Translations under genes and position numbers: made by a program
Part shown: positions 50,564-60,754 of the stretch, piece after piece
How the letters are laid out: each line of letters begins with the position of its first letter
Numbering within the stretch: the first letter of the stretch is position 1
Origin: an uncultured bacterium
GTDB taxonomy: Bacteria > Myxococcota_A > UBA796 > GCA-2862545
NCBI GenBank assembly: GCA_965367245.1
Contig: CBDUIC010000003.1
Location: 74,622 to 138,621 of the forward strand
Reading direction: 5' to 3'
DNA: 64,000 nt
The notes under the pieces: model-generated
What the model saw: only the letters and a program-made list of their open reading frames with translations
Database searches by the model: none
Told to the model about the DNA's origin: nothing

Positions 50564-51082
50564 ATGAAGCTGATCGACCTCGATGGCGACACCAACCTCC
50601 TCCGAATGGCGTGGGACCGGCTGTCTCCTCTTCCCGGTGGCAACCGCGTCTTCTCGCGGCTCGTCGGCAGGATGGCTCCCTACACGGGCACCATTCGGGC
50701 TCGGGTCGTGCAGCTCGAGCCGGGCCACAGCCGGGTCCGCATGAACGACCGCCCCGCCCTGCGCAACCACCTCCGGTCGGTGCACGCTGTCGCCCTCGCC
50801 AACCTCGCCGAGCTCACCGGCAACGTCGCCCTCGCCTACAGCATGCCCGACGACGCACGGTTCATCGTCGCCGGGATGAGCTTCGACTACGTCAAGAAGG
50901 CGCGGGGCACCATCGAGGGGCGCTGCGACTGCCCCGTGCCCACCGACAGCCGCCGCACCGAGTACGAGGTGCCCGTCACCCTGCACGACCCCACGGGGGA
51001 GGTGGTGGTGAAGGCCACGCTGCGCACGCTGGTGGGGCCGAAGCCACCCCGTGGGGCCTCCCACGGTGGGGCACGCACGTGA
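50564..51082 (+). CDS. hotdog-fold thioesterase-like protein (DUF4442/PaaI-like)
   Basis: MKLIDLDGDTNLLRMAWDRLSPLPGGNRVFSRLVGRMAPYTGTIRARVVQLEPGHSRV. 172 aa. Its stop overlaps the next gene's GTG (GTGA). Confidence 0.65.
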   Translation: MKLIDLDGDTNLLRMAWDRLSPLPGGNRVFSRLVGRMAPYTGTIRARVVQLEPGHSRVRMNDRPALRNHLRSVHAVALANLAELTGNVALAYSMPDDARFIVAGMSFDYVKKARGTIEGRCDCPVPTDSRRTEYEVPVTLHDPTGEVVVKATLRTLVGPKPPRGASHGGART

Positions 51083-52611
51083 GCCAGGGGCCCCCCGACG
51101 AGGGAGCGCGCCGTGCCCAGCGATACATGCAGGCCTTCCGCGACGCCCCCATCGGCATGGCCGTGGTCGGCACCGACGAGCGCATCCTCGAGGCCAACGA
51201 CGCGCTGTGCCGCATGCTCGGCTACTCCCAGGAGGAGCTGCTCGCACGCACGGTGATCGACATCACCCATCCCGACGACCTGCAGGTGGAGACCGAACAC
51301 AAGGCCGCCGCCTACCACGACCGCGTTGGCTCCTTTCAGGTGCAGAAGCGCTACGTGCGCGCCGACGGCAGCGTGCTGATGGGCCGCTTGTCGGTGTCGA
51401 CGACCTATGGGCCTGATGGGTCGCCATCCTACTTCGTCGGCCAGCTCGAAGACGTCACCGAGCAGCAGCGGCTGCACACGCAGCTGAGTCAGCTGCAGCG
51501 GCTCGAGAGCCTCGGGCAGCTCGCCGGCGGCGTCGCCCACGACTTCAACAACATGCTGGCGGTGATCCTCGGCTTCGGCGAGATACTGGGCGAGACCCTG
51601 CAGGCCGACGCCCAGCGCCGCGACCTCGACGAGATCATGCGAGCGGCAGAGCGCGCCAGAGACCTCACCCGGCAGCTCCTCGCCGTGGGCCGACGTGGGC
51701 AGCTCGGCCCCGACGTCATCGACATCAACCAGAGCGTCCGCGACACGGCGCGCATGCTCGACCGGGTGCTCGGCAGCGACGTGCAGGTCGCCCTCGACCT
51801 CGAAGCCAGCGTTGGGGCAGCCCGCATCGACGAAGTCCACCTCGAGCAGATCCTGCTCAACCTGGCCGTGAACGCACGCGACGCGATGCCCACGGGCGGC
51901 ACCTTCCGGATCTCCACCACCATCGAGCACGTCGCCACGCAGCGTCCTGGCCTGTCGCCGGGCGCGTACGTGCGGCTCGAGATTCGCGACGACGGCGTGG
52001 GGATGAGCGACGACACCACCGCCCATCTCTTCGAGCCCTTCTTCACGACCAAGGCTGCCGGCCACGGCACCGGCCTGGGGCTTGCTACGGTCTATGGCAT
52101 CGTCCGCCAGACGCAGGGGCACATCACGGTCGCATCCGCGCCCGGCCGTGGCACCACCTTCACCCTGTGGATCCCCGCCAGCAAAGCGGCGACGCGCCCC
52201 GACGAGCCAGGCCATCCCGTGGAAGCGACCCGACCGGGTCGCATCCTGTTCGCCGAAGACGAGCCCGCCCTTCGCTCTCTGTGCCAACGGGTGCTCGCAG
52301 GAGCCGGCTACGAGGTGCTCGTCGCCTCCGATGGGGGGGAGGCGCTCCATCACGCCGCTGCCGCGGAGCCCCTCGATCTGCTCATCACCGATGTCACGAT
52401 GCCCGACATGCACGGCCCCAGGCTCGCCGACATCCTGCATCAGAGCCGGCCCGACCTGTCGGTGCTGTTCATCTCCGGCCACGCCAGGGGCGCGGTGCCG
52501 TCTGGCGGCGACGGCGCCCACGTAGACTTCCTGGCCAAGCCCTTCCGGCCCGACGACCTGCTGCAGCGGGTGCAGGGGCTGCTGGAGCGCCGACACCTCA
52601 CGAAGCGCTGA
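51079..52611 (+). CDS. hybrid sensor histidine kinase / response regulator with a PAS domain
   Basis: PAS: ILEANDALCRMLGYSQEELLARTVIDITHPDD. HisKA H-box: LAGGVAHDFNNML. HATPase N/G boxes: LNLAVNARDAM, DDGVGMSDD, GHGTGLGLATV. C-terminal REC: RILFAEDEPALR...DLLITDVTMPDMHG...KPF. Confidence 0.85.
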   Translation: MSQGPPDEGARRAQRYMQAFRDAPIGMAVVGTDERILEANDALCRMLGYSQEELLARTVIDITHPDDLQVETEHKAAAYHDRVGSFQVQKRYVRADGSVLMGRLSVSTTYGPDGSPSYFVGQLEDVTEQQRLHTQLSQLQRLESLGQLAGGVAHDFNNMLAVILGFGEILGETLQADAQRRDLDEIMRAAERARDLTRQLLAVGRRGQLGPDVIDINQSVRDTARMLDRVLGSDVQVALDLEASVGAARIDEVHLEQILLNLAVNARDAMPTGGTFRISTTIEHVATQRPGLSPGAYVRLEIRDDGVGMSDDTTAHLFEPFFTTKAAGHGTGLGLATVYGIVRQTQGHITVASAPGRGTTFTLWIPASKAATRPDEPGHPVEATRPGRILFAEDEPALRSLCQRVLAGAGYEVLVASDGGEALHHAAAAEPLDLLITDVTMPDMHGPRLADILHQSRPDLSVLFISGHARGAVPSGGDGAHVDFLAKPFRPDDLLQRVQGLLERRHLTKR

Positions 52612-52636
52612 TCCAAATACTTGCCCGTCCTGTTCG

Positions 52637-52652
52637 TTCAGTTATTACTGAA
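52637..52652. promoter_or_regulatory. perfect 16-bp palindrome TTCAGTTATTACTGAA in the AT-rich leader, 22 nt upstream of the GbsR/MarR start, nested inside a CCCGTC...GACGGG inverted repeat (52624-52669). Candidate operator.
   Basis: Read directly from the sequence. It is a local AT-rich island in a 70% GC genome. Confidence 0.5.
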
Positions 52653-52673
52653 TGACTAAAACTGACGGGTACG

Positions 52674-53135
52674 ATGCAGCAGCGAGCGCAAGAACTGGCA
52701 GACCGGATCAGCCTCGTCTTCGAGGGGGCGGGGCTGTCACCCGTGGCGGGGCGCATCGTCGGCCACCTGCTGCTGTGCGAGCCGCGCGAGCAGTCGAGCG
52801 CCGAGCTCGCGGCCTCCACCCACGCCTCCAAGGGCTCGATCAGCACCCAGACGCAGCTGCTCGCCACCATGGGTCTCATCGAGCGCACCCGAAAGCCGGG
52901 GAGCCGCGCGGCCTTCTACCGGATTCGCCCTCACGTGTGGACCGACCTGCTGCAGCTCGAGGTCGCTCGCACCCAGCAGCTGCACGAGCTGGCCAAGGAG
53001 GCCATCACCCTCAAGCGGGCCATGGGCGAGCCCATCGACGACCGCTTGTCTGACTTCCGCGGATTCACCGAGTTCTTTCTCGCGCGCCTGCCCGCCCTCA
53101 TCGACGAGTGGCGCGCGCTGCAGATGGAGAGTTGA
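52674..53135 (+). CDS. GbsR/MarR-family winged-helix transcriptional regulator
   Basis: The motif AGRIVGHLLLCEPREQSSAELAASTHASKGSISTQTQLLATMGLIERTRKPGSRAAFYRI is GbsR/MarR-type wHTH. 153 aa. Its stop overlaps the next start (TGATG). Confidence 0.7.
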   Translation: MQQRAQELADRISLVFEGAGLSPVAGRIVGHLLLCEPREQSSAELAASTHASKGSISTQTQLLATMGLIERTRKPGSRAAFYRIRPHVWTDLLQLEVARTQQLHELAKEAITLKRAMGEPIDDRLSDFRGFTEFFLARLPALIDEWRALQMES

Positions 53136-53872
53136 TGCGACGTTTCCTGCCCCTGTTGCTCCTCGTGGCCACCACGGCCCTCGCCGGCGACAAGCCCACC
53201 ATCGAAGAGCTGCTCGACGCCACCGACGACGTCAACCGAGGAGCCTCCTCCACGGCGGTGATGTCGATGCAGGTCAAGACCGACCGCTACGAGCGGTCGA
53301 TGAAGATGAAGGCCAAGTCCCAGGGGGAGGAGAACAGCCTCATCGTCATCCTCGAGCCGGCCAAGGACGCAGGCATCGCCACGCTGAAGGTCGGCGACAA
53401 CCTGTGGAACTACATGCCCAAGGTCGACCGCACGATGAAGATCCCCGCGGGGATGATGTCGGGCAGCTGGATGGGCAGCCACCTGTCGAACGACGACCTG
53501 GTGCGCAACAGCCGCCTTCGCGACGACTTCACCTACCAGATGGTCTCCGAGCCCGCCGACGACGGCACGGGCGAGTGGGTCATCGAGCTGGTGCCCAAGC
53601 CCGATGCCGCGGTGGTGTGGGGCAAGGTCGTGGTGACGATCCGCCCCGACAAGGTCCCCACCAAGATCGAATACTTCGACGAGAAGGGCAACCTGGTGCG
53701 CACCCTCGGCTTCGACCGCATCGAGCAGGTCGGCGAGCGGCAGGTGCCGATGGAGATGTCGGTCATCCCCGGTGACAAGCCCGACGAGTTCACCCGCATC
53801 ACCTACGACGAGCTCAGTTTCGACGTCGAGCACGACGCGAGCACGTTCAGCCTCCAGGCCCTCAAGAAGTAG
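53135..53872 (+). CDS. LolA-like outer-membrane lipoprotein-sorting / lipoprotein-carrier-like protein
   Basis: Signal peptide MRRFLPLLLLVATTALAG. LolA-like beta-rich fold cues: GEWVIELVPKPDAAVVWGKVVVTIRPDKVPTKIEYFDEKGNLVRTLGFDRIEQV. Confidence 0.65.
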   Translation: MRRFLPLLLLVATTALAGDKPTIEELLDATDDVNRGASSTAVMSMQVKTDRYERSMKMKAKSQGEENSLIVILEPAKDAGIATLKVGDNLWNYMPKVDRTMKIPAGMMSGSWMGSHLSNDDLVRNSRLRDDFTYQMVSEPADDGTGEWVIELVPKPDAAVVWGKVVVTIRPDKVPTKIEYFDEKGNLVRTLGFDRIEQVGERQVPMEMSVIPGDKPDEFTRITYDELSFDVEHDASTFSLQALKK

Positions 53873-53880
53873 GAGGCGCT

Positions 53881-55113
53881 GTGCGCACCCTCATTGCCAT
53901 CGCGTGGCGCAACCTGTGGCGCCACAAGCGTCGGTCGCTGATCACTGCCACTGCGATGGCCGTGGCGGTGGCCATGTGCATGAGCCTCATCGCGTTCACC
54001 GACGGCATGTACGGCAAGATGTTCGAGATCATGGTCGGCCAGCAGCTGGGGCACGTGCAGGTGCACCACCCCGACTACCCGGCCGGCAAGAAGCTCCTCG
54101 ACACCATCCCCGACGCGCAGGCCACCCTCGGCGCCATCGAGGCAGCCCCTGGCGCCCTCGGGGCCACGGGGCGGCTCAACGGCTTCGCCCTGCTCGGCGG
54201 CGCCAAGATGTCGACCGGCGCCCAGCTGCAGGGCATCGAGCCCGCGCGGGAGCTGCCCCTCACCCACATCGATCAGCGCATCATCGAGGGGCGCTTCCTC
54301 GGCGACGAGGCCAACCTCGAGGTAGTCGTCGGCGTGGGGCTGGCCGAGGAGCTCGACATCGGGGTCGGCGACGAGGTCGTCGGGTTCACGCAGTCGGCCG
54401 ACGGGTCGCTGGGCAACGAGCTGTACACGGTGGTCGGCCTGTCGAGCACCGGCAACGCCGCGATGGACAAGGGCGGCGCCTGGATGCACCTGCACGACCT
54501 GCAGGAGCTGTTGGTCCTGCCGGATCAGGTGCACGGCATCACGGTGCTGTCCACCGACCCCGACGCCCTGCAGCCCTTCGTCGACCAGCTCGAGGGCGTG
54601 GTCCCCGACACGGTGCAGGTGCAGACCTGGCAAGAAGCGAGTCCCCAGACCGCAGAGCTGATGGGCATGCAGAGCTTCGCGAGCCTGTTCATGCTCGGCA
54701 TCGTGTTCGCCGTCGCCAGCTTCGGCGTGCTCAACACCATGATGATGTCGGTCTTCGAGCGCACCCGCGAGCTGGGCGTGCTCAAGGCCATCGGCCTCAA
54801 GCCCCAGCAGATGATCGCCATGGTGCTCGTCGAGAGTGCGTTCCTCGCCGGCCTCGCCGGTGGGATCGGGCTCGTGATCGGCGGGCTGCTCGACCTGCTG
54901 GTGGTCTTCTACGGGTTCGACATGACGGCGGGCAACCCCGACGGCTTCGAGATGATGGGCGTGCGCCTCGACCCCGTCATCTACGGCGAAGTCACCCCAT
55001 TCAGCCTCTTCGCGCCCATCTCGGCCCTCGTGGTCGTGTCGGTGGGCGCGTCCCTCTGGCCGGCGTGGCGGGCGGCTCGTCTGCAGCCCGTCGAAGCCAT
55101 CCGCACGGAGTAG
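53881..55113 (+). CDS. ABC transporter permease, FtsX/MacB-LolCE family (1 of 3 tandem paralogues)
   Basis: The N-terminus VRTLIAIAWRNLWRHKRRSLIT contains TM1, followed by a large periplasmic domain. The C-terminal segment has three TMs with the family motif MMMSVFERTRELGVLKAIG. Confidence 0.85.
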   Translation: MRTLIAIAWRNLWRHKRRSLITATAMAVAVAMCMSLIAFTDGMYGKMFEIMVGQQLGHVQVHHPDYPAGKKLLDTIPDAQATLGAIEAAPGALGATGRLNGFALLGGAKMSTGAQLQGIEPARELPLTHIDQRIIEGRFLGDEANLEVVVGVGLAEELDIGVGDEVVGFTQSADGSLGNELYTVVGLSSTGNAAMDKGGAWMHLHDLQELLVLPDQVHGITVLSTDPDALQPFVDQLEGVVPDTVQVQTWQEASPQTAELMGMQSFASLFMLGIVFAVASFGVLNTMMMSVFERTRELGVLKAIGLKPQQMIAMVLVESAFLAGLAGGIGLVIGGLLDLLVVFYGFDMTAGNPDGFEMMGVRLDPVIYGEVTPFSLFAPISALVVVSVGASLWPAWRAARLQPVEAIRTE

Positions 55114-55116
55114 GCC

Positions 55117-56343
55117 ATGTGGCGACTCGCCTTCCGAAACCTGGTGCGCCACACCCGACGCACCCTGATCACCGGCAGCGCCATCGCTGTCGGCATCGCC
55201 CTCGCCATCCTGATGTGGAACGTGCAGGCCGGGCTCTACGCCGACATGCTCGCGCAGGCGATCAGCAGCCAGGCTGGCCACGTCGTGGTGCAGGCCACGG
55301 GCTGGCAGGCCGAGCAAGAGACGGAGATGCTCCTCGCCGACGCGAGCGCCCTGCAGCAGCGGCTGTCCGACGCGGTGCCCAACGCGACCATCAGCCGCCG
55401 GGTGTTCGCAGGGGGGCTGCTGGTCGCCCCCGGCTCGTCGGTGGGGGTCGGCCTCAAGGGTCTCGACCCGGCCGTCGAGGCCGACATCGACCGCTTCGAC
55501 GAGCTCATCGTCGACGGCACCTGGCTCGTCCCTGGCGACGACCGCGGCCTGGTGATCGGTCGGGCCCTCGCTGAGCGCCTGTCCGTCGAGGTCGGCGACA
55601 AGGTCGTGTTCATGACCCAGCCCCCCGGGTCCGACGAGATGGTCAGCCAGCTCCACCGCATCACCGGGCTGTTCCACACCGGCGCGGCCAGCGTCGACGG
55701 CAGTCTGGTGCTCTCCACGGTGGAGGCAGCTCAGGCGGCGCTGCACGCCGAAGACAAGGTCCACCAGCTGGCGCTCCACCTCGACGACCCCGACCAGACC
55801 GATCGGGCGCTGGGGGCGGTGGCCGCCCTGGGCGTGGCCGATGCCGAGGTGCTGCCCTGGACGATGGCGGTGCCCAACCTCCTCGGCTTCATCGACATGA
55901 AGATGTCGGGCACCCACACGATGAACGCCTTCCTGCTGATCATCGTCGCCCTGGGCATCGCCAACACGGTGCTGATGAGCGCGCTGGAGCGCACCCGCGA
56001 GTTCGGGGTCCTCCTCGCCCTCGGCATGCGCCCCAGCCAGCTGATGGCCCTGCTGATGGCTGAGGCGGCGCTGATCGGAGCCCTCGGTGGGGTTCTCGGC
56101 GTGCTCCTCGGCGCCATCGGCACCTACCCCTTCGTGCGATGGGGGCTCGACTACAGCTCGTTCATGGGCGAGTCGATGGAGGTCGCTGGCGTCATCACCT
56201 CGTCGCTGATCATCGGCACCTACGACTGGCCGGTCATGGTGCTGTACGGGCTGGGCGGCGTCCTGGTCGCTATGGCCTCTGCCGTCTACCCCGCCATGAC
56301 GCTGCGCACCCTCACCCCCGTCGACGCCATGAGAGGCACCTGA
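55117..56343 (+). CDS. ABC transporter permease, FtsX/MacB-LolCE family (2 of 3)
   Basis: MWRLAFRNLVRHTRRTLIT...LMSALERTREFGVLLALG. Same architecture as its neighbours. Confidence 0.85.
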   Translation: MWRLAFRNLVRHTRRTLITGSAIAVGIALAILMWNVQAGLYADMLAQAISSQAGHVVVQATGWQAEQETEMLLADASALQQRLSDAVPNATISRRVFAGGLLVAPGSSVGVGLKGLDPAVEADIDRFDELIVDGTWLVPGDDRGLVIGRALAERLSVEVGDKVVFMTQPPGSDEMVSQLHRITGLFHTGAASVDGSLVLSTVEAAQAALHAEDKVHQLALHLDDPDQTDRALGAVAALGVADAEVLPWTMAVPNLLGFIDMKMSGTHTMNAFLLIIVALGIANTVLMSALERTREFGVLLALGMRPSQLMALLMAEAALIGALGGVLGVLLGAIGTYPFVRWGLDYSSFMGESMEVAGVITSSLIIGTYDWPVMVLYGLGGVLVAMASAVYPAMTLRTLTPVDAMRGT

Positions 56344-57578
56344 TGCGTCTCGCGAAGCTCGCCCTGCGCAACCTGTTCCGCAACCTGCGCCGCACGCTGA
56401 TCACCACGGCCGCCATCGCCTCGGGCCTGGCGCTGGTCTTGATGATGGTCTCGATGCAGGCCGGCCAGTATGCCGACATGCTGCGCATCGGCATCTCCAC
56501 CATGGCGGGCCACGTGGTGGTCCAGGCCGACGGGTGGCAAGAGGAGCGGGAGACCGAGCAGGTGCTCGCCGATGCCGGCGCCGTCACCGCACAGCTGCGC
56601 GAGGCCTTCCCCGAGGGCGTGGTCACCCCGCGGCTGTATCTGGGGGGCCTGCTCACCTCGCCCCGCAGCTCCGCGGGCATCGCCCTGCGCGGGGGCCACC
56701 CCAGCCAGGAAGCCCTGATCGACACCCTCGACGACAAGCTGGTCGCGGGGGAGTGGCTCGCCGACGACGACGACCGCGGCCTGATCATCGGCGCAGGGCT
56801 CGCCGACGCCCTGTCGGTCGAGGTCGGCGACAAGGTCGTCTACATGGGCCAGACGAGCGAGCAAGACGAGATGGTGTCGCGGATGCTGCGCGTGCGCGGC
56901 ATCTACCGCACCGGCGGATCGGAGCTCGACGGGATGGTGGCGCTGGTCACGCTGGCCACCGCGCAGGAGCTGATGGAGCGCGAAGACGTAGTCCACCAGG
57001 TCGCCCTGCACATCTCCGACCCCGAGAACAGCCCCCAGGCCGCCGAGAAGGCCCAGGCCCTGCTGGCCGCCCCCGGTCGCGACGTGCTGGAGTGGCCCGA
57101 GGCCCTCCCCAGCTTGGTGAACTTCATCGAGATCGACCGTGTCTCGGGCGACGTGATGATGGCGGTGATGGGCCTCATCGTAGCGATGGGGGTGCTCAAC
57201 ACCGTGCTCATGAGCGTCCTCGAGCGCACCAAGGAGTTCGGGGTGCTGCTGGCCATCGGCATGAAGCCGTATCGCCTGGGCATGCTCGTGCTGCTCGAAG
57301 CCACCTTCCTCGGCGTGCTCGGCACCATCGTCGGCAGCGTGTTCGGCGGCCTCATCGCCGCCTACCTCGTCGCCTACGGCATCGACTACTCCGCCTACAT
57401 GGGGGAGAGCATCGAGATGGAGGGGCTCGTCATCTCCACGCTGATGCGTGGAGGCTGGGATGCCGACCGCATGGGCGCCTACCTGCTGGCCACCGTGGTC
57501 GTCACCATGCTCGCCGGGGTCTACCCCGCCTGGCACCTCACCCGCCTGCAACCCGTCGACGCCATGCGCGCCCCATAA
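56343..57578 (+). CDS. ABC transporter permease, FtsX/MacB-LolCE family (3 of 3)
   Basis: MRLAKLALRNLFRNLRRTLIT...LMSVLERTKEFGVLLAIG. Its start overlaps the previous stop (TGATG). Confidence 0.85.
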   Translation: MRLAKLALRNLFRNLRRTLITTAAIASGLALVLMMVSMQAGQYADMLRIGISTMAGHVVVQADGWQEERETEQVLADAGAVTAQLREAFPEGVVTPRLYLGGLLTSPRSSAGIALRGGHPSQEALIDTLDDKLVAGEWLADDDDRGLIIGAGLADALSVEVGDKVVYMGQTSEQDEMVSRMLRVRGIYRTGGSELDGMVALVTLATAQELMEREDVVHQVALHISDPENSPQAAEKAQALLAAPGRDVLEWPEALPSLVNFIEIDRVSGDVMMAVMGLIVAMGVLNTVLMSVLERTKEFGVLLAIGMKPYRLGMLVLLEATFLGVLGTIVGSVFGGLIAAYLVAYGIDYSAYMGESIEMEGLVISTLMRGGWDADRMGAYLLATVVVTMLAGVYPAWHLTRLQPVDAMRAP

Positions 57579-57595
57579 TCAAGGAAGTCCGCATC

Positions 57596-58279
57596 ATGTC
57601 CATCGTCAGCGTGCGCAACCTCGTCCGGCACTACCAGCAGGGCGACATCACCGTGAAGGCCCTCGACGGGGTCGACCTCGACATCGAGCCCGGCGAGTTC
57701 ACCACCCTCATGGGCCCGTCGGGCTCCGGCAAGACCACCCTCCTCAACCAGATCGGCGGTCTCGACCAGCCCACCTCGGGCACCATCACCATCGACGGCG
57801 TGGAGATCAGCAAGCTGTCTTCTTCGCAGCTCGCCGACGTGCGGCTGCGCAAGCTGGGCTTCGTGTTCCAGTCGTACAACCTCGTGCCGGTGCTGTCGGC
57901 CTACGAGAACGCCGAGTTCGTGCTCCTGCTGCAGGGCATGCCCGCCAAGGAGCGCAAGGAGCGGGTGATGAAGACCCTCGCCGACGTGGGGCTCACTGGG
58001 ATGGAGCACCGCCGCCCCGGCGAGCTGTCCGGCGGGCAGCAGCAACGGGTGGCTGTCGCCCGAGCCATCGCCGGTCGCCCTGCGCTGGTCCTCGCCGATG
58101 AGCCCACCGCCAACCTCGACTCCAAGACCAGCGAGTCGCTCATCGACCTGATGCGGTCGCTCAACGTCGACCACGGCATCACCTTCCTGTTCTCGACCCA
58201 CGATCCGCGCATCATGGACGCCGCTCGCCGCGTGGTCCACATGCAGGACGGCCGCATCTACGAGGACACCACCAAGTGA
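57596..58279 (+). CDS. ABC transporter ATP-binding protein (LolD/MacB-ATPase-like)
   Basis: SD aaggaag upstream. Walker A GPSGSGKTT, Q-loop, signature LSGGQQQRVAVARA, Walker B LVLADEPT, H-loop STHD. 227 aa. Confidence 0.9.
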   Translation: MSIVSVRNLVRHYQQGDITVKALDGVDLDIEPGEFTTLMGPSGSGKTTLLNQIGGLDQPTSGTITIDGVEISKLSSSQLADVRLRKLGFVFQSYNLVPVLSAYENAEFVLLLQGMPAKERKERVMKTLADVGLTGMEHRRPGELSGGQQQRVAVARAIAGRPALVLADEPTANLDSKTSESLIDLMRSLNVDHGITFLFSTHDPRIMDAARRVVHMQDGRIYEDTTK

Positions 58280-59484
58280 TGATCTGGTGGCTGGCGACGG
58301 CGCTGGCGGCCGACGAGCCCGTCACGCTGCATGGCGACCTGAAGAGCTTCTTCACCGCCACCATCCCCTACGACAGCCCCCTGCTCCCCGACGACCCGAC
58401 GGGGCAGGGCGTGGCCGACCTCCGCCTCAAGCTGCGGGTGCAGCCTACCGAAGACCTCCGCTTCGACGTGCATCACGCCACCACCGCCCTCACCGCCTCC
58501 GCCACCGGCGCCCTGGGCGGCACCAGCACCGGCGTCGGGCTGCAGGCCCCCGAGATCGTCGACCTGTCGTGGGTCGCCACCGACGCCGACCTCACCCTCC
58601 GCGGCCGCGTCGACCGCCTCTCCGCCCGCTACACCGCCGGGCCCCTCACCCTCACCGCCGGCCGCCAGCCCGTCTCCTTCGGGGCCGGCATGGCCTTCAC
58701 CCCCCTCGACCTGGTCAACCCCTTCACCCCCGCTGTCATCGACCAGGAGTACAAGCCCGGGGTCGACGCCCTGCGAGTCGATGCCTACCAGGGCATGAGC
58801 CAGCTCACCGTCGTCGCGGCCTACGCCGGCGACCTCGACCTCGACGGCACCGTGCTCGCGGCCTACGGCCAGACCACCGCCGGCGTCACCGATCTCGGCC
58901 TGTTCTTGGGCAGCATCCAGGGCGATCTGGTCGCCGGCACCTCGGTCGTCAGCTCCATCGGCCCCATCGGCGTGCACAGCGACCTGGCCGTCACCGTGCC
59001 CACCGACGACACCACCGACCCCTTCTTCCGCGGCGTGGTCGGCAGCCTGTGGCGCCCCGCCGCCGACACCACCCTCACCGGTGAGCTCTACCTGCAGACC
59101 CTCGGCGCCGCCGACCCCGCCGACTACCTCGACACCGCCCAGGATCCCCGCTTCGCCCGCGGCGAGCTGTGGCTGTTCGGCCGTGCCTACGCCGCCCTCA
59201 CCGCGTCTCAGCAGATCACCCCGCTGATCGCAGGCAGCGCGGCCCTGATCACCAACATCGAAGACGGCTCGGCCTTCGTCGCCCCCAGCCTGTCGTGGAA
59301 CGCCTCCGACAACACCGTAGTCGCTGCCGGCGGCTTCGTCGGCCTCGGCAAGCGACCCACCGAGTCCGTCAGCACCATCACCCTCCCCGACGGTGGCACC
59401 CTCGCCGTCGATCTGCCCGTGCTCGCCAGCGAGTTCGGCACCTACCCTGCCGTCGCCTTCCTGCAGATGCGCACCTACTTCTAG
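58276..59484 (+). CDS. probable outer-membrane beta-barrel protein (hypothetical)
   Basis: The GTG/ATG start overlaps the ATPase stop (GTGATGA). Signal peptide MMIWWLATALAA. Beta-strand alternation runs throughout. The C-terminus ...AVAFLQMRTYF ends in Phe, as typical for OMPs. Confidence 0.55.
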   Translation: MMIWWLATALAADEPVTLHGDLKSFFTATIPYDSPLLPDDPTGQGVADLRLKLRVQPTEDLRFDVHHATTALTASATGALGGTSTGVGLQAPEIVDLSWVATDADLTLRGRVDRLSARYTAGPLTLTAGRQPVSFGAGMAFTPLDLVNPFTPAVIDQEYKPGVDALRVDAYQGMSQLTVVAAYAGDLDLDGTVLAAYGQTTAGVTDLGLFLGSIQGDLVAGTSVVSSIGPIGVHSDLAVTVPTDDTTDPFFRGVVGSLWRPAADTTLTGELYLQTLGAADPADYLDTAQDPRFARGELWLFGRAYAALTASQQITPLIAGSAALITNIEDGSAFVAPSLSWNASDNTVVAAGGFVGLGKRPTESVSTITLPDGGTLAVDLPVLASEFGTYPAVAFLQMRTYF

Positions 59485-59527
59485 GCTCTTGCACAGCCCC
59501 TGCACAGCGGCAGGCCACATTGCCTTC

Positions 59528-60754
59528 ATGTGGACTACCCTCTTGCTCGCCGCCGCCGCCGCCCCCGTCGAGACTGCCACCGTGCAGCACCTCGGCCAGG
59601 CCTACCATGTCGTCACCGTCGACCTGCGCGAGGCGGAGCTCCGCCTGGTTGGCCAGGCCCCCGGCGAAGCCCACCGCTTCGCCGACCTGCCTGACGACGT
59701 GCTCGCCGCCACCAACGCGGCCCTGTTCCACACCCCGGATGACCCCGTCGGGCTGTGGGTGCAGCGAGGCCGGGAGCACAGCCCCCTGGAGCGCGGCACC
59801 GGCGCCGGCAACTTCTTCCTGCAGCCCAACGGCGTGCTCGCCCTCGATGCCCGTGGGACCTCGATCATCGCGACGCCTGACTGGACGCCCGGGCCCGGCC
59901 TTCAGCTAGCGGCCCAGTCGGGGCCGCTGTTGCTCGCCGCTGGCGACGTCCACCCGCACATTGGGCCGTCGTCTACCAGCCTGAAGCTACGTAATGCCGC
60001 TGGCGTGTGCGGGCCGTGGACCGTCGCGCTGGTCGCGTCCGCCGCGCCGGTACGCCTGCACGACCTCGCCACCCTGTTCCGCGACACCCTGGGCTGCGAC
60101 GACGCGCTGTACCTCGACGGCAGCCTGTCCGGCATCCGAGCCGACGGCCTGCCGCCCCCCGCCGACGACCACGACGTCGCCGGCTTCCTCGTGGTCACCG
60201 AGCGGGAGACCCCACGAGGACTCCGCGACGGCGACGTCGTGTTCCAGCGCTCCCGGTCGGCCCAGGCAGCCGCCATCGCCGCAGCGACCGGATCGCGGTT
60301 CACCCATGTCGGTCTGGTGCGCATCATCGACGGGCAGCCCTGGGTGTTCGAGGCCGTGCAGCCCGTACGACGCACCCCCTTCGAGGCCTGGGCCGCCCGC
60401 GGCATCGACCAGGTCGTCGAGGTTCGGCGACCGAGGGCCGAGGGTCTGTGGACCCCGAATGCGCTGGCCCGCCTCGATGCGCTGCAGGAGGCCTGGCTCG
60501 GTCGCCCCTACGACCTCGCCTTCGCCCCCGGCGACGACGCCCTGTACTGCAGCGAGCTCGTCCGCGAGGCCTACCTGCGTGCGACGGGGCTCGAGCTCGC
60601 TCCTCTGCGCCCCGTCGGCAGCTACCGCGTCGACGAGCCGGAGGCGCGCAGGGCGATGCTCGCGCGCTGGGGCGAAGTCCCCCTGGAACGACCCGTGGTG
60701 GCCCCTTCCGACCTGCTCGAGGCACCGGCACTGGAGCCCGTCACGTCGTTCTGA
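59528..60754 (+). CDS. fusion protein: N-terminal phosphodiester-glycosidase-like (NAGPA/DUF2233-like) domain plus C-terminal YiiX/YaeF-type permuted papain-like (C92) domain
   Basis: Signal peptide MWTTLLLAAAAAPVETA. The C-terminal half contains DGDVVFQRSRS...THVGLV...DDALYCSELVREAYL, the YiiX-family conserved core (YCSELV). The N-terminal domain assignment is less certain. Confidence 0.55.
   Translation: MWTTLLLAAAAAPVETATVQHLGQAYHVVTVDLREAELRLVGQAPGEAHRFADLPDDVLAATNAALFHTPDDPVGLWVQRGREHSPLERGTGAGNFFLQPNGVLALDARGTSIIATPDWTPGPGLQLAAQSGPLLLAAGDVHPHIGPSSTSLKLRNAAGVCGPWTVALVASAAPVRLHDLATLFRDTLGCDDALYLDGSLSGIRADGLPPPADDHDVAGFLVVTERETPRGLRDGDVVFQRSRSAQAAAIAAATGSRFTHVGLVRIIDGQPWVFEAVQPVRRTPFEAWAARGIDQVVEVRRPRAEGLWTPNALARLDALQEAWLGRPYDLAFAPGDDALYCSELVREAYLRATGLELAPLRPVGSYRVDEPEARRAMLARWGEVPLERPVVAPSDLLEAPALEPVTSF

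Follow-up and report, generated by a model that had tools for sequence, protein, structure and literature searches.

Seven tightly packed genes, all co-directional on the plus strand, lie at positions 52674-59484 of the window, the whole 64-kb stretch of DNA that was analysed (Table 1). Overlapping stop and start codons (TGATG) join the regulator gene to the LolA-like gene and P2 to P3, and GTGATGA joins the ATPase gene to the barrel gene; the remaining intergenic gaps measure 8, 3 and 17 nt. Gene coordinates and junctions thus agree with the head-to-tail operon given in a preliminary description, and Pfam domains bear out its LolA-like protein, three FtsX permeases and ABC ATPase. A MacAB-TolC-type tripartite pump was rejected, because neither an HlyD-type membrane-fusion adaptor nor a TolC-family duct is encoded by the seven genes, their neighbours or the related loci with called genes. 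The cluster contains no LolB-like gene, and no cargo gene was found in or near it.

Table 1. Features of the locus, in positions of the window
Feature	Position	Strand	Description
AT-rich leader	52612-52673		Follows a hybrid histidine kinase gene and precedes the regulator gene
-35-like hexamer TTGCCC	52621-52626	+	Putative promoter element
Outer inverted repeat CCCGTC (52624-52629) / GACGGG (52664-52669)	52624-52669		6 + 6 nt, 34 nt between arms
Candidate operator TTCAGT-TATT-ACTGAA	52637-52652		Imperfect palindrome, core TTCAG-N6-CTGAA
Half-site-like AACTGA	52660-52665		8 nt downstream of the operator, pairs with TCAGTT at 52638-52643
Regulator (REG)	52674-53135	+	153 aa, MarR superfamily, MmpR5 (Rv0678)-like
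LolA-superfamily carrier	53135-53872	+	245 aa, PF17131 LolA_like / TP_0789-like, 'LolA3 type', periplasmic
Permease P1 (a-type)	53881-55113	+	410 aa, MacB_PCD + FtsX
Permease P2 (extra b-type paralogue)	55117-56343	+	408 aa, MacB_PCD + FtsX
Permease P3 (canonical b-type)	56343-57578	+	411 aa, MacB_PCD + FtsX
ABC ATPase	57596-58279	+	227 aa, ABC_tran, LolD/DevA/MacB-NBD-like
Predicted outer-membrane beta-barrel	58279 (or GTG 58276)-59484	+	401 aa, uncurated family

The leader and its regulator

The 62-nt leader has a GC content of 43.5%, compared to 70.1% in the window, in line with the AT-rich island described earlier. When the 64 kb were scanned, equally AT-rich stretches made up 0.03% of all 62-nt stretches and every one of them was located at the leader. 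The 16-bp palindrome in this leader had been called perfect, but its reverse complement reads TTCAGTAATAACTGAA and only 14 of the 16 positions pair, with 6-bp arms flanking TATT. Within the window, one match stands against 0.43 expected and at least one match occurred in 35 of 100 shuffles, which is compatible with chance, so that the significance of the palindrome derives solely from its conservation in orthologous leaders. In 27 of 30 orthologous loci, the DNA upstream of the regulator contains TTCAG-N6-CTGAA half-sites with a variable spacer at a distance of 37-114 nt. The 31 regulator-upstream regions of 200 nt contain 28 matches in total, whereas about 0.5 would be expected from the 107 matches in 1.32 Mb. 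Alignment of the orthologous leaders yielded the extended consensus ctGAA.gTTCAGtaaTtACTGAAcGTTC.gAA. The TTCAG-N6-CTGAA pattern is missing from loci where a TetR regulator stands in for the MarR protein. As judged from its conservation and its co-occurrence with MarR-type regulators, the palindrome is very probably a genuine operator footprint, which supports the previously suggested control by repressor and operator. The CCCGTC/GACGGG repeat, in which the palindrome was described to be nested, is present, but the aligned orthologous leaders do not conserve it and lend no support to a functional element; it is probably a product of chance or specific to the lineage. Eleven of the 30 aligned leaders, including that of the window, show by eye a TTGAC/TTGCx hexamer that precedes the operator by 9-11 nt. 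Since a strict sigma-70 scan detected no promoter at the leader, we only infer that TTGCCC may act as a -35 element.

The label GbsR initially given to the regulator is not supported, because its sole match to this type, the CudC model NF047500, reached 17.1 bits, with the cut-off at 218. Rv0678 (PDB 4NB5) matched with an E-value of 4.6e-17 over residues 7-126, the MarR_2 score of 26.4 bits was slightly below the cut-off of 27, and one ortholog carries a weak precomputed match to PF27059 (HTH_MmpR5). By sequence, the regulator is an MmpR5/Rv0678-like MarR protein. The type of regulator swaps among loci between an MmpR5-like MarR, a TetR and another MarR protein. Exchangeable local regulators are characteristic of efflux systems induced by their substrate, drug and solvent pumps typically have MarR and TetR repressors, and Rv0678 itself represses a lipid/drug exporter.

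Transporter, carrier and barrel

P1, P2 and P3 all matched PF12704 and PF02687 above cut-off and have the architecture of type VII (MacB/FtsX-type) permeases, with an N-terminal transmembrane segment, a MacB-like periplasmic core and a C-terminal FtsX bundle of three transmembrane segments. The closest solved relatives of all three are LolF, LolC and LolE, ahead of MacB, which supports their description as Lol-type permeases. The scores for LolC and LolE were 62.7 and 53.2 for P1, 48.1 and 38.9 for P2, and 42.5 and 58.4 for P3, with LolF being closer in each case. In the tree, the permeases divide into an a-type and a b-type subunit, both ancient, with no clear assignment to LolC and LolE. In every related locus, the first permease is an ortholog of P1. 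P3 falls into the b-type clade, and in 51 of 58 complete loci the second permease has P3 as its best match. P2 shares 49% identity with P3 and 30% with P1; it has 1:1 orthologs in close relatives and evolves fastest (68-73% identity, compared to 77-81% for P3 and 84-87% for P1). According to the tree, the third permease is a b-type duplication that arose independently in the clade of the window and in an Acidobacteriota MAG; three permeases are also encoded at locus L002, to which this assignment of origin does not extend. The ATPase matched ABC_tran with 123.6 bits (E 1.1e-35) and its sequence contains intact Walker A (GPSGSGKT), signature (LSGGQQQR), Walker B (LVLADEPT) and H-loop (THD) motifs. 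The top NCBIfam matches of permeases and ATPase were the lolCE and LolD models, but the permeases scored 133.9, 103.7 and 122.5 bits with TIGR02212 (cut-off 362.45) and the ATPase 227.5 bits with TIGR02211 (cut-off 307.75). As these scores are far under the equivalog cut-offs, the proteins do not qualify as canonical LolCDE components by these models.

The carrier matched PF17131 over the entire profile (positions 1-184 of 184, 165.3 bits with a cut-off of 30, E 1.6e-48) and no other Pfam family, which places it outside the canonical LolA families. It starts with a hydrophobic signal-peptide leader, read from the sequence as MRRFLPLLLLVATTALA followed by GD, without a lipobox cysteine. Its relatives in the PDB are 3BUU, 4Z48, 3BK5 and 9TP6, and the same four structures with the LolA-superfamily half-barrel fold were the best Foldseek matches; for 9TP6, which is LolA3 of P. 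gingivalis, the E-values were 7.6e-10 with phmmer and 2.9e-15 with Foldseek. Family and structural relatives thereby uphold the assignment as a LolA-superfamily periplasmic protein. Residues 95-124 are the most conserved stretch of the carrier, yet they are disordered in the model.

These similarities to Lol components raise the question whether the module serves accessory lipoprotein sorting, with a Lol paralogue that hands some of the lipoproteins over to the LolA3-type carrier and a barrel that replaces LolB or flips lipoproteins to the surface. The LolA fold of the carrier, the solved relatives of the permeases and the top NCBIfam models are consistent with such a function, which was also put forward for BBJ23-29 of Borrelia (PMC13078400). 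We nevertheless consider it quite unlikely, because the scores remain far under the equivalog cut-offs, the carrier belongs to PF17131 instead of canonical LolA, a ligand-type repressor that is a TetR protein in other lineages is unlike housekeeping sorting, and the clusters of related loci have no lipoprotein gene in common. Moreover, deletion of lolA3 in Flavobacterium johnsoniae caused no phenotype and left lipoprotein-dependent phenotypes intact (PMC11885536).

The last gene product was modelled by AF2 as a closed beta-barrel (pLDDT 89.5) with about 20 long strands by DSSP, and its C-terminus (RTYF) is of the OMP type with an aromatic terminal residue. It is predicted to form an outer-membrane barrel, in agreement with the preliminary description, with 18-20 strands and similarity to porins, AlgE and Wzi. 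It has no match in Pfam or NCBIfam, and no Pfam family reached E <= 0.01 in 11 proteins, comprising this barrel and ten distant members. Among 30 members scanned at E <= 5, one match to DUF1302 (0.1) and one to Porin_O_P (0.2) were the only ones. Membership in the OprD/Occ, AlgE (Alginate_exp) or DUF1302 Pfam families was rejected, as the similarity is one of fold only: the 18-stranded OprD/Occ, ChiP, AlgE and Wzi barrels are 6-14% identical to the barrel, share no Pfam match with it and have wholly different genomic partners.

The uptake channels OprD/Occ, ChiP and maltoporin are among the nearest folds, and the barrel could accordingly be a channel for a hydrophobic nutrient that the LolA-like protein ferries inward and the ABC transporter inserts into the inner membrane. 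The literature on DUF1302 and DUF1329 reportedly includes work on how P. putida metabolizes fatty acids and alcohols, which would fit uptake. MMPL and LolA-like proteins were also found to be induced on long-chain alkanes in Thalassolituus (PMC6304351). However, the export-related AlgE and Wzi score equally well as folds, catabolic genes are absent in and near the cluster, and no importing type VII ABC transporter is known, nor is there a transmembrane substrate path in these systems (PMC5985334, PMC8333309), which makes retrograde transport very unlikely.

Conservation of the five-gene core

The module has a wide distribution among uncultured bacteria. Of 80 species-level genomes, 58 have a complete core of LolA-like protein, permease a, permease b, ATPase and barrel. 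This core is also present in MAGs of Acidobacteriota and Gammaproteobacteria, and its permease-ATPase-barrel part is retained on a Planctomycetota contig that is cut. Among distant lineages, the core is found in L087, L088, L089, L090 and L092 and partially in L091. The flanks vary between loci, and the genes flanking the core in the window never adjoin it in the related loci examined. Two permeases are the norm and three are a minority state. Coupling to the barrel, which had been called unusual, is the rule and not an oddity, considering the 58 genomes and the occurrence in other phyla. The earlier reservation that the arrangement might prove widespread and be annotated as a Lol cluster applies to the two-permease core with respect to its distribution, but the annotation is generic ABC and 'hypothetical protein'.

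In rearranged loci (L020, L021, L025, L029-31, L038, L046, L076), the LolA-like gene is still directly upstream of the barrel gene. The close relatives L083/L084 have the order P1-P2-P3-ATPase-barrel without an adjacent LolA-like gene. The barrel occurs alone with a regulator in L032, L056, L074 and L019, and with only the LolA-like gene in L029, indicating that it can function without the ABC transporter, perhaps as a simple channel. Solitary barrels would also suit a generic pump that detoxifies amphipathic peptides, detergents or solvents, comparable to MacB, YbbAP or BceAB, with the LolA-like protein as periplasmic sponge and the barrel as co-regulated passive porin for exit or entry. Local repressors of the kind used by drug and solvent pumps agree with this function, and precedents exist in YbbAP-TesA, which extracts hydrophobic compounds including xenobiotics from the inner membrane (PMC12646458), and in AmeABCD, which was tied to monoterpene tolerance (PMC6394551). 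This explanation overlaps largely with the shuttle exporter proposed below and differs only in the origin of the cargo and the mechanistic coupling of the barrel. The adjacency of carrier and barrel is strictly kept across phyla and variants of gene order, which argues for coupling rather than coincidence, and we regard a generic pump as unlikely.

Proposed mechanism and comparison with known systems

The best reading of the locus, to which we would assign about even chances, is a self-contained, ligand-derepressed shuttle exporter that carries hydrophobic or lipidic cargo across the envelope. The lack of a cargo gene in or near the cluster, the solitary barrels, the L083/L084 loci with no LolA-like gene next to the others and the silent lolA3 deletion in F. 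johnsoniae (PMC11885536) speak against it. Without inducer, a dimer of the MmpR5-like MarR protein bound to TTCAG-N6-CTGAA would repress the entire operon, including its own gene, and accumulation of a hydrophobic ligand would lead to expression. P1 as a-type subunit may then pair with P3 or P2 as b-type subunit and with two copies of the ATPase to form a heterodimeric type VII (MacB/Lol-type) transporter. ABC systems of type VII work from the periplasmic side. Driven by ATP, the transporter would remove a greasy cargo from the inner membrane and load it onto the soluble LolA3-type carrier, similar to the extrusion of lipoproteins by LolCDE to LolA (PMC8333309). Candidate cargoes are lipids, glycolipids, pigments, xenobiotics and perhaps acylated proteins. 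After crossing the periplasm, the carrier would pass the cargo to the dedicated 18-20-stranded barrel for release into or across the outer membrane. With three permeases, a second a/b pairing would be available and thereby probably a second range of cargo. As a tentative and rather doubtful generalization, the core might constitute a third widespread ABC-powered route to the outer membrane beside Lol and Lpt, with a soluble periplasmic carrier, non-protein hydrophobic cargo, a barrel of an unnamed family as terminal component and repeated duplication of the b subunit to widen the cargo range.

With LolCDE-LolA-LolB of E. coli and its LolF variants, the system shares paired 4-TM permeases of the MacB type, an ATPase on its own polypeptide and a soluble LolA-superfamily carrier. 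The outer-membrane partner in the Lol system is the lipoprotein LolB, in contrast to the predicted integral barrel described here, and the PF17131 carrier, the repressor control, the third permease and the low scores with the Lol models are further differences. A MarR-type repressor beside an envelope exporter is shared with Rv0678 (MmpR5)-MmpS5/MmpL5 of M. tuberculosis, where the exporter is of the RND/MMPL and not of the ABC type. The carrier family is common to the Bacteroidota LolA3 or TetR-MMPL-'lipoprotein-sorting protein' operons (P. gingivalis PG1175-81, Prevotella intermedia), which likewise contain a local repressor and hypothetical genes (PMC10434189), but use an MMPL/RND transporter along with other ABC ATPases and are strongly induced by iron limitation.

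An inner-membrane transporter combined with a LolA-superfamily protein and a dedicated barrel is also characteristic of AmeABCD and the DUF1302-DUF1329-BNR-RND clusters of Castellaniella, Pseudomonas and Shewanella. AmeABCD, which was linked to monoterpene efflux (PMC6394551), combines an RND pump with a DUF1329 protein of the LolA superfamily and a DUF1302 barrel, and the clusters in general were tied to hydrophobic substrates or export of envelope components (PMC6394551; bioRxiv 10.1101/072470). They differ by the RND energizer, a DUF1302 barrel of about 600 aa and a BNR protein, whereas the present module has an ABC transporter, no BNR protein and a DUF1302 match in one barrel member only. 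Borrelia burgdorferi BBJ23-29, described in silico only, has an analogous architecture, although its barrel is an Omp85/BamA-TamA homologue, its permease is predicted to be a homodimer and TPR proteins are present (PMC13078400). By analogy, the module is best read as an ABC-powered counterpart of the RND-DUF1329-DUF1302 systems and of Borrelia BBJ23-29.

Gene order, leader and putative operator

The seven genes of the module lie head to tail on one strand (see table), with TGATG overlaps between the regulator and LolA-like genes and between the second and third permease genes (P2 and P3), a GTGATGA overlap between the ATPase and barrel genes, and remaining gaps of 8, 3 and 17 nt. These junctions read exactly as quoted in the preliminary description, which was also right about the AT-rich leader: its 62 nt have a GC content of 43.5%, compared with 70.1% in the window, and equally AT-rich stretches make up 0.03% of all 62-nt stretches in the 64 kb, every one of them at the leader. 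A strict sigma-70 promoter scan of the leader found no promoter, and 3' of the barrel gene there was no terminator. Neither the system nor the operator recurs within the window, and scans of it revealed no tRNA or tmRNA gene and no Rfam family reaching its gathering score.

Features of the module and its immediate surroundings (window coordinates)
Feature	Position	Strand	Remarks
Hybrid PAS/histidine kinase/receiver gene	50611-52611	+	ends 62 nt before regulator gene
Leader	52612-52673		62 nt
Hexamer TTGCCC	52621-52626		
CCCGTC	52624-52629		left arm of repeat
Operator 16-mer	52637-52652		TTCAG-N6-CTGAA
GACGGG	52664-52669		right arm of repeat
Regulator (REG)	52674-53135	+	
LolA-like	53135-53872	+	
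LolA-like residues 95-124	53417-53506		
Permease P1	53881-55113	+	a-type
Permease P2	55117-56343	+	b-type
Permease P3	56343-57578	+	b-type
ATPase	57596-58279	+	
Barrel	58279-59484	+	alternative GTG start 58276
Barrel signal peptide (predicted)	58279-58320		
NAGPA/Peptidase_C92 ORF	59393-60754	+	longest form

The downstream ORF combines NAGPA (phosphodiester glycosidase) and Peptidase_C92 (YiiX-like) domains. Because its longest form runs about 90 nt into the 3' end of the barrel gene, its true start is probably later. The flanking genes (hybrid kinase, NAGPA/C92 protein, M3 peptidase, MAPEG and sulfatase) were considered as clues to the cargo and rejected, since none is kept beside the module in other genomes; for the same reason the module is self-contained.

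The regulator belongs to the MarR superfamily, scores marginally under the cut-off of the MarR_2 model and has a single strong relative of solved structure, 4NB5 (E 4.6e-17). This protein is Rv0678/MmpR5, which represses the MmpS5-MmpL5 exporter. Searches with family models gave no support for the earlier label 'GbsR'. The leader had been credited with a perfect 16-bp palindrome, but two positions fail to pair when the 16-mer is compared with its own reverse complement, leaving 6-bp arms (TTCAGT/ACTGAA) around TATT. Taken alone, the 16-mer is within chance (0.43 matches expected, and at least one match in 35 of 100 shuffles). Across genomes, with one mismatch allowed, 27 of 30 loci with an MmpR5-like regulator, as well as the window, have TTCA[G/C]-N6-[G/C]TGAA at 37-114 nt before the start of the regulator gene. 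Of the 107 matches in 1.32 Mb, 28 fell inside the 31 regulator-upstream segments of 200 nt, in which about 0.5 would be expected. As the half-sites are fixed while the spacer varies among orthologous leaders, this conservation has the pattern of a putative protein-binding footprint, and the symmetry continues into the flanks (ctGAA.gTTCAG......CTGAAcGTTC.gAA). Of the TetR-led loci that were checked, L087 and L092, neither has the motif, and the 33 loci without the regulator contained six matches in 700-nt segments, mostly poor and perfect only in L055.

The L055 site (L055:2620-2635, TTCAGTAGTTACTGAA) lies 312 nt upstream of a LolA-like gene. An MmpR5-like regulator is not detectable in this locus, and the 128-aa ORF between site and gene has no Pfam match.

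A TTGAC/TTGCx hexamer, TTGCCC in the window, stands 9-11 nt upstream of the operator in 11 of 30 leaders; if it were a promoter element, the operator would cover the -10/+1 region. The CCCGTC/GACGGG inverted repeat reported around the palindrome is present in the window but is not conserved in orthologous leaders.

Transporter, carrier and barrel

MacB_PCD and FtsX domains were found in each of the three permeases. Among proteins of solved structure they are closest to LolF, LolC and LolE, with YtrF and MacB ranking lower, and all three remain far under the Lol equivalog cut-offs. The ATPase is LolD/DevA-like with intact catalytic motifs. Two permeases are the usual state, one of an a-type (P1) and one of a b-type (P2 and P3); both types are ancient and are paired across phyla. 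The three permeases noticed at the outset are thus real in the window, but they are a recurrent minority variant, found in four settings: the window itself, its close relatives L083-L086, locus L002 (on the 9.4-Mb record OZ245034.1) and the Acidobacteriota locus L092. The permeases of L083-L086 are 1:1:1 orthologous to those of the window, with identities of 68-73% for P2, the fastest evolving, 77-81% for P3 and 84-87% for P1. In L092 (L092:2117-9203, a MAG), TetR, LolA-like, three FtsX permease, ATPase and barrel genes occur together. Its two b-type copies share 70% identity and are sisters in the tree, so this duplication, and only this one, is clearly independent of that in the window's clade. 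In neighbor-joining trees, the extra copies of L002 and of the window's clade sit on long basal branches.

The additional copy is of the b-type in every case, and all copies are intact. Divergence between duplicated permeases is spread evenly over periplasmic and membrane parts, with no region-specific divergence. A single ATPase gene alongside two b subunits suggests that two alternative a/b complexes may form, and the repeated duplication of the b-type alone suggests which subunit sets specificity. An assignment of P1, P2 and P3, or of the a and b types, to LolC and LolE roles was discarded, as the best-match results were inconsistent.

The LolA-like protein is a full-length member of PF17131 (165 bits) whose N-terminal leader lacks a lipobox. 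Among solved structures it is related to structural-genomics 'LolA superfamily' proteins and to 9TP6, the LolA3 of P. gingivalis. PF17131/LolA3-type proteins are common and several structures have been solved, but to our knowledge none has an assigned function. The most conserved stretch of the carrier family, residues 95-124 (PKVDRTMK.P.GMMSGSWMGSH.SNDDLV), is rich in Met and Trp, has many invariant positions and is disordered in the AF2 model (pLDDT <50; mean of the model 77), making it a candidate for a movable lid or for a loop that docks a partner.

The barrel protein was modeled by AF2 as a closed barrel of about 20 long strands (pLDDT 89.5, pTM 0.84). An assignment to a curated family was tried and rejected: Pfam and NCBIfam searches returned none for the protein or for 10 distant members, and 30 family members scanned at E <= 5 gave none beyond single weak hits to DUF1302 (E 0.1) and Porin_O_P (E 0.2). 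The matches of a profile to the sequences in the PDB were no more than noise. At 50% identity, the family comprises 3534 representatives at E <= 1e-3 and 865 at E <= 1e-30, and all source names seen were 'hypothetical protein'. A large family of about 3500 clusters without a Pfam model is thereby defined. Its most strongly conserved motif, GRQP.SFG.G..FTPLDLVNPFTPAVIDQEYKPGVD (residues 128-164), occupies a long loop after strand 5 of the model, which would be external loop 3 if the N-terminus is periplasmic. External loop 3 is the constricting loop of classical porins. At the N-terminus a very short signal peptide without a basic n-region is predicted (MIWWLATALAA, followed by DEP), and the sequence upstream offers no in-frame start that would lengthen it. 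Close homologs share this short leader, whereas P0384, a distant member, has a normal one.

Distribution of the module

With the barrel as query, 80 species-level genome loci were retrieved, all but one labelled as MAGs and mostly labelled Myxococcota or Deltaproteobacteria. L062, 'Proteobacteria bacterium DTSAM18', does not carry the MAG label. LolA-like, P1-type, b-type, ATPase and barrel genes occur together in 58 of them; among the other 22, several lie on cut or too-short contigs and others have ample flanks yet lack the cluster. The usual order is regulator, LolA-like, a, b, ATPase, barrel. In both order variants, LolA-like-barrel before a-b-ATPase or after it, the carrier gene stands directly upstream of the barrel gene. 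Locus L087 reads TetR, LolA-like, FtsX, FtsX, ABC, barrel, and the same core is present in the distant members L088, L089 and L090 (Halieaceae, Gammaproteobacteria) and L092; on the cut contig of L091 (Planctomycetota), FtsX-ABC-barrel remains. Because distant family members retain the same core, coupling to the barrel is the defining state of the module and no anomaly, and the arrangement taken for unusual in the preliminary description is in fact common.

Some loci depart from this composition. L083:1-1170 and L084:1-1370, with barrels 82% identical to that of the window, contain P1-P2-P3-ATPase-barrel and, in place of the regulator and LolA-like genes upstream, an opposite-strand PDDEXK_3 gene, so that their carrier must either have its gene at another place or not be needed. 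Two-gene regulator-barrel units occur in L032:9447-11245, L074:9450-11257 and L056:9441-11254; the palindrome of the first two (TGACTGACCAGTCA) differs from the operator, and that of L056 is operator-like. In L019:8444-10647 the barrel accompanies a TrmB-like regulator with the motif TTCAATACAGACTGAA, and L029:8713-11191 is a LolA-like/barrel pair with ABC genes absent within about 9 kb.

Many contigs with the module, among them those of L007-L009, L012, L018, L023 and L029, are titled either 'uncultured Enterobacterales/Enterobacteriaceae/Rickettsiales bacterium' or, for isolates named ...MYXO-..., 'Alphaproteobacteria', in contrast to the Myxococcota or Deltaproteobacteria labels of most other records. 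The oddly titled loci that were checked, L029 and L032, have a GC content of 71-72%. These Enterobacterales, Rickettsiales and Alphaproteobacteria titles look like unreliable taxonomic labels.

Proposed function and relation to known systems

The best-supported hypothesis is that the module encodes a ligand-derepressed shuttle exporter. A type VII ABC heterodimer would draw hydrophobic cargo out of the inner membrane on its periplasmic side and load it onto the soluble LolA3-type carrier, which would hand it over to the barrel. LolCDE extracts its cargo from this side (PMC8333309), as does YbbAP-TesA with hydrophobic cargo (PMC12646458). The family relationships of each part argue for this reading. 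Further support for the shuttle exporter comes from the five genes being strictly inherited together, the position of the carrier gene next to the barrel gene even in rearranged loci, and the exchangeable local repressors (MarR or TetR), which by analogy resemble substrate-induced efflux more closely than housekeeping biogenesis. The reading is weakened by the barrels found with a regulator only (L032, L056, L074, L019) or a carrier only (L029), by the missing adjacent carrier gene in L083/L084, and by the lack of a phenotype after deletion of lolA3 in F. johnsoniae (PMC11885536). Its rivals are a specialised lipoprotein route, an uptake system, and a pump for generic detoxification whose porin is uncoupled. 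The interpretation from the first reading is partly supported: the exporter stays the best hypothesis, although its arrangement is common and its three permeases are a minority state.

Little is understood of how hydrophobic molecules beyond LPS and lipoproteins get to the outer membrane or pass through it. Here, a LolA3-type carrier gains fixed partners, with a Lol-like extractor on one side and a specific barrel on the other, in a module that is conserved in at least three phyla and has a readable regulatory switch, which makes a new envelope transport route a concrete, testable hypothesis. Nearly all organisms with this candidate for an unstudied route are uncultured.

Canonical LolCDE was ruled out because the equivalog scores were not reached, and a MacAB-TolC-type pump because there is neither an adaptor nor TolC. 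In the literature on PF17131, TP0789 and 'LolA-like' proteins with FtsX, we found no characterised system of this composition. The same logic is seen in RND-DUF1329-DUF1302 clusters such as AmeABCD (PMC6394551; bioRxiv 10.1101/072470), in TetR-MMPL-'lipoprotein-sorting protein' operons of Bacteroidota (PMC10434189) and in the in-silico BBJ23-29 cluster of Borrelia, which combines a MacB-like ABC transporter and an Omp85 barrel with a LolA-like protein (PMC13078400). These three architectures have been described but are themselves unresolved. What is new in comparison is that a Lol-like ABC transporter of heterodimeric type occurs together with both a LolA3-type carrier and a porin-like barrel whose family is uncurated, that the module extends so broadly across phyla, and that the b subunit has been duplicated recurrently.
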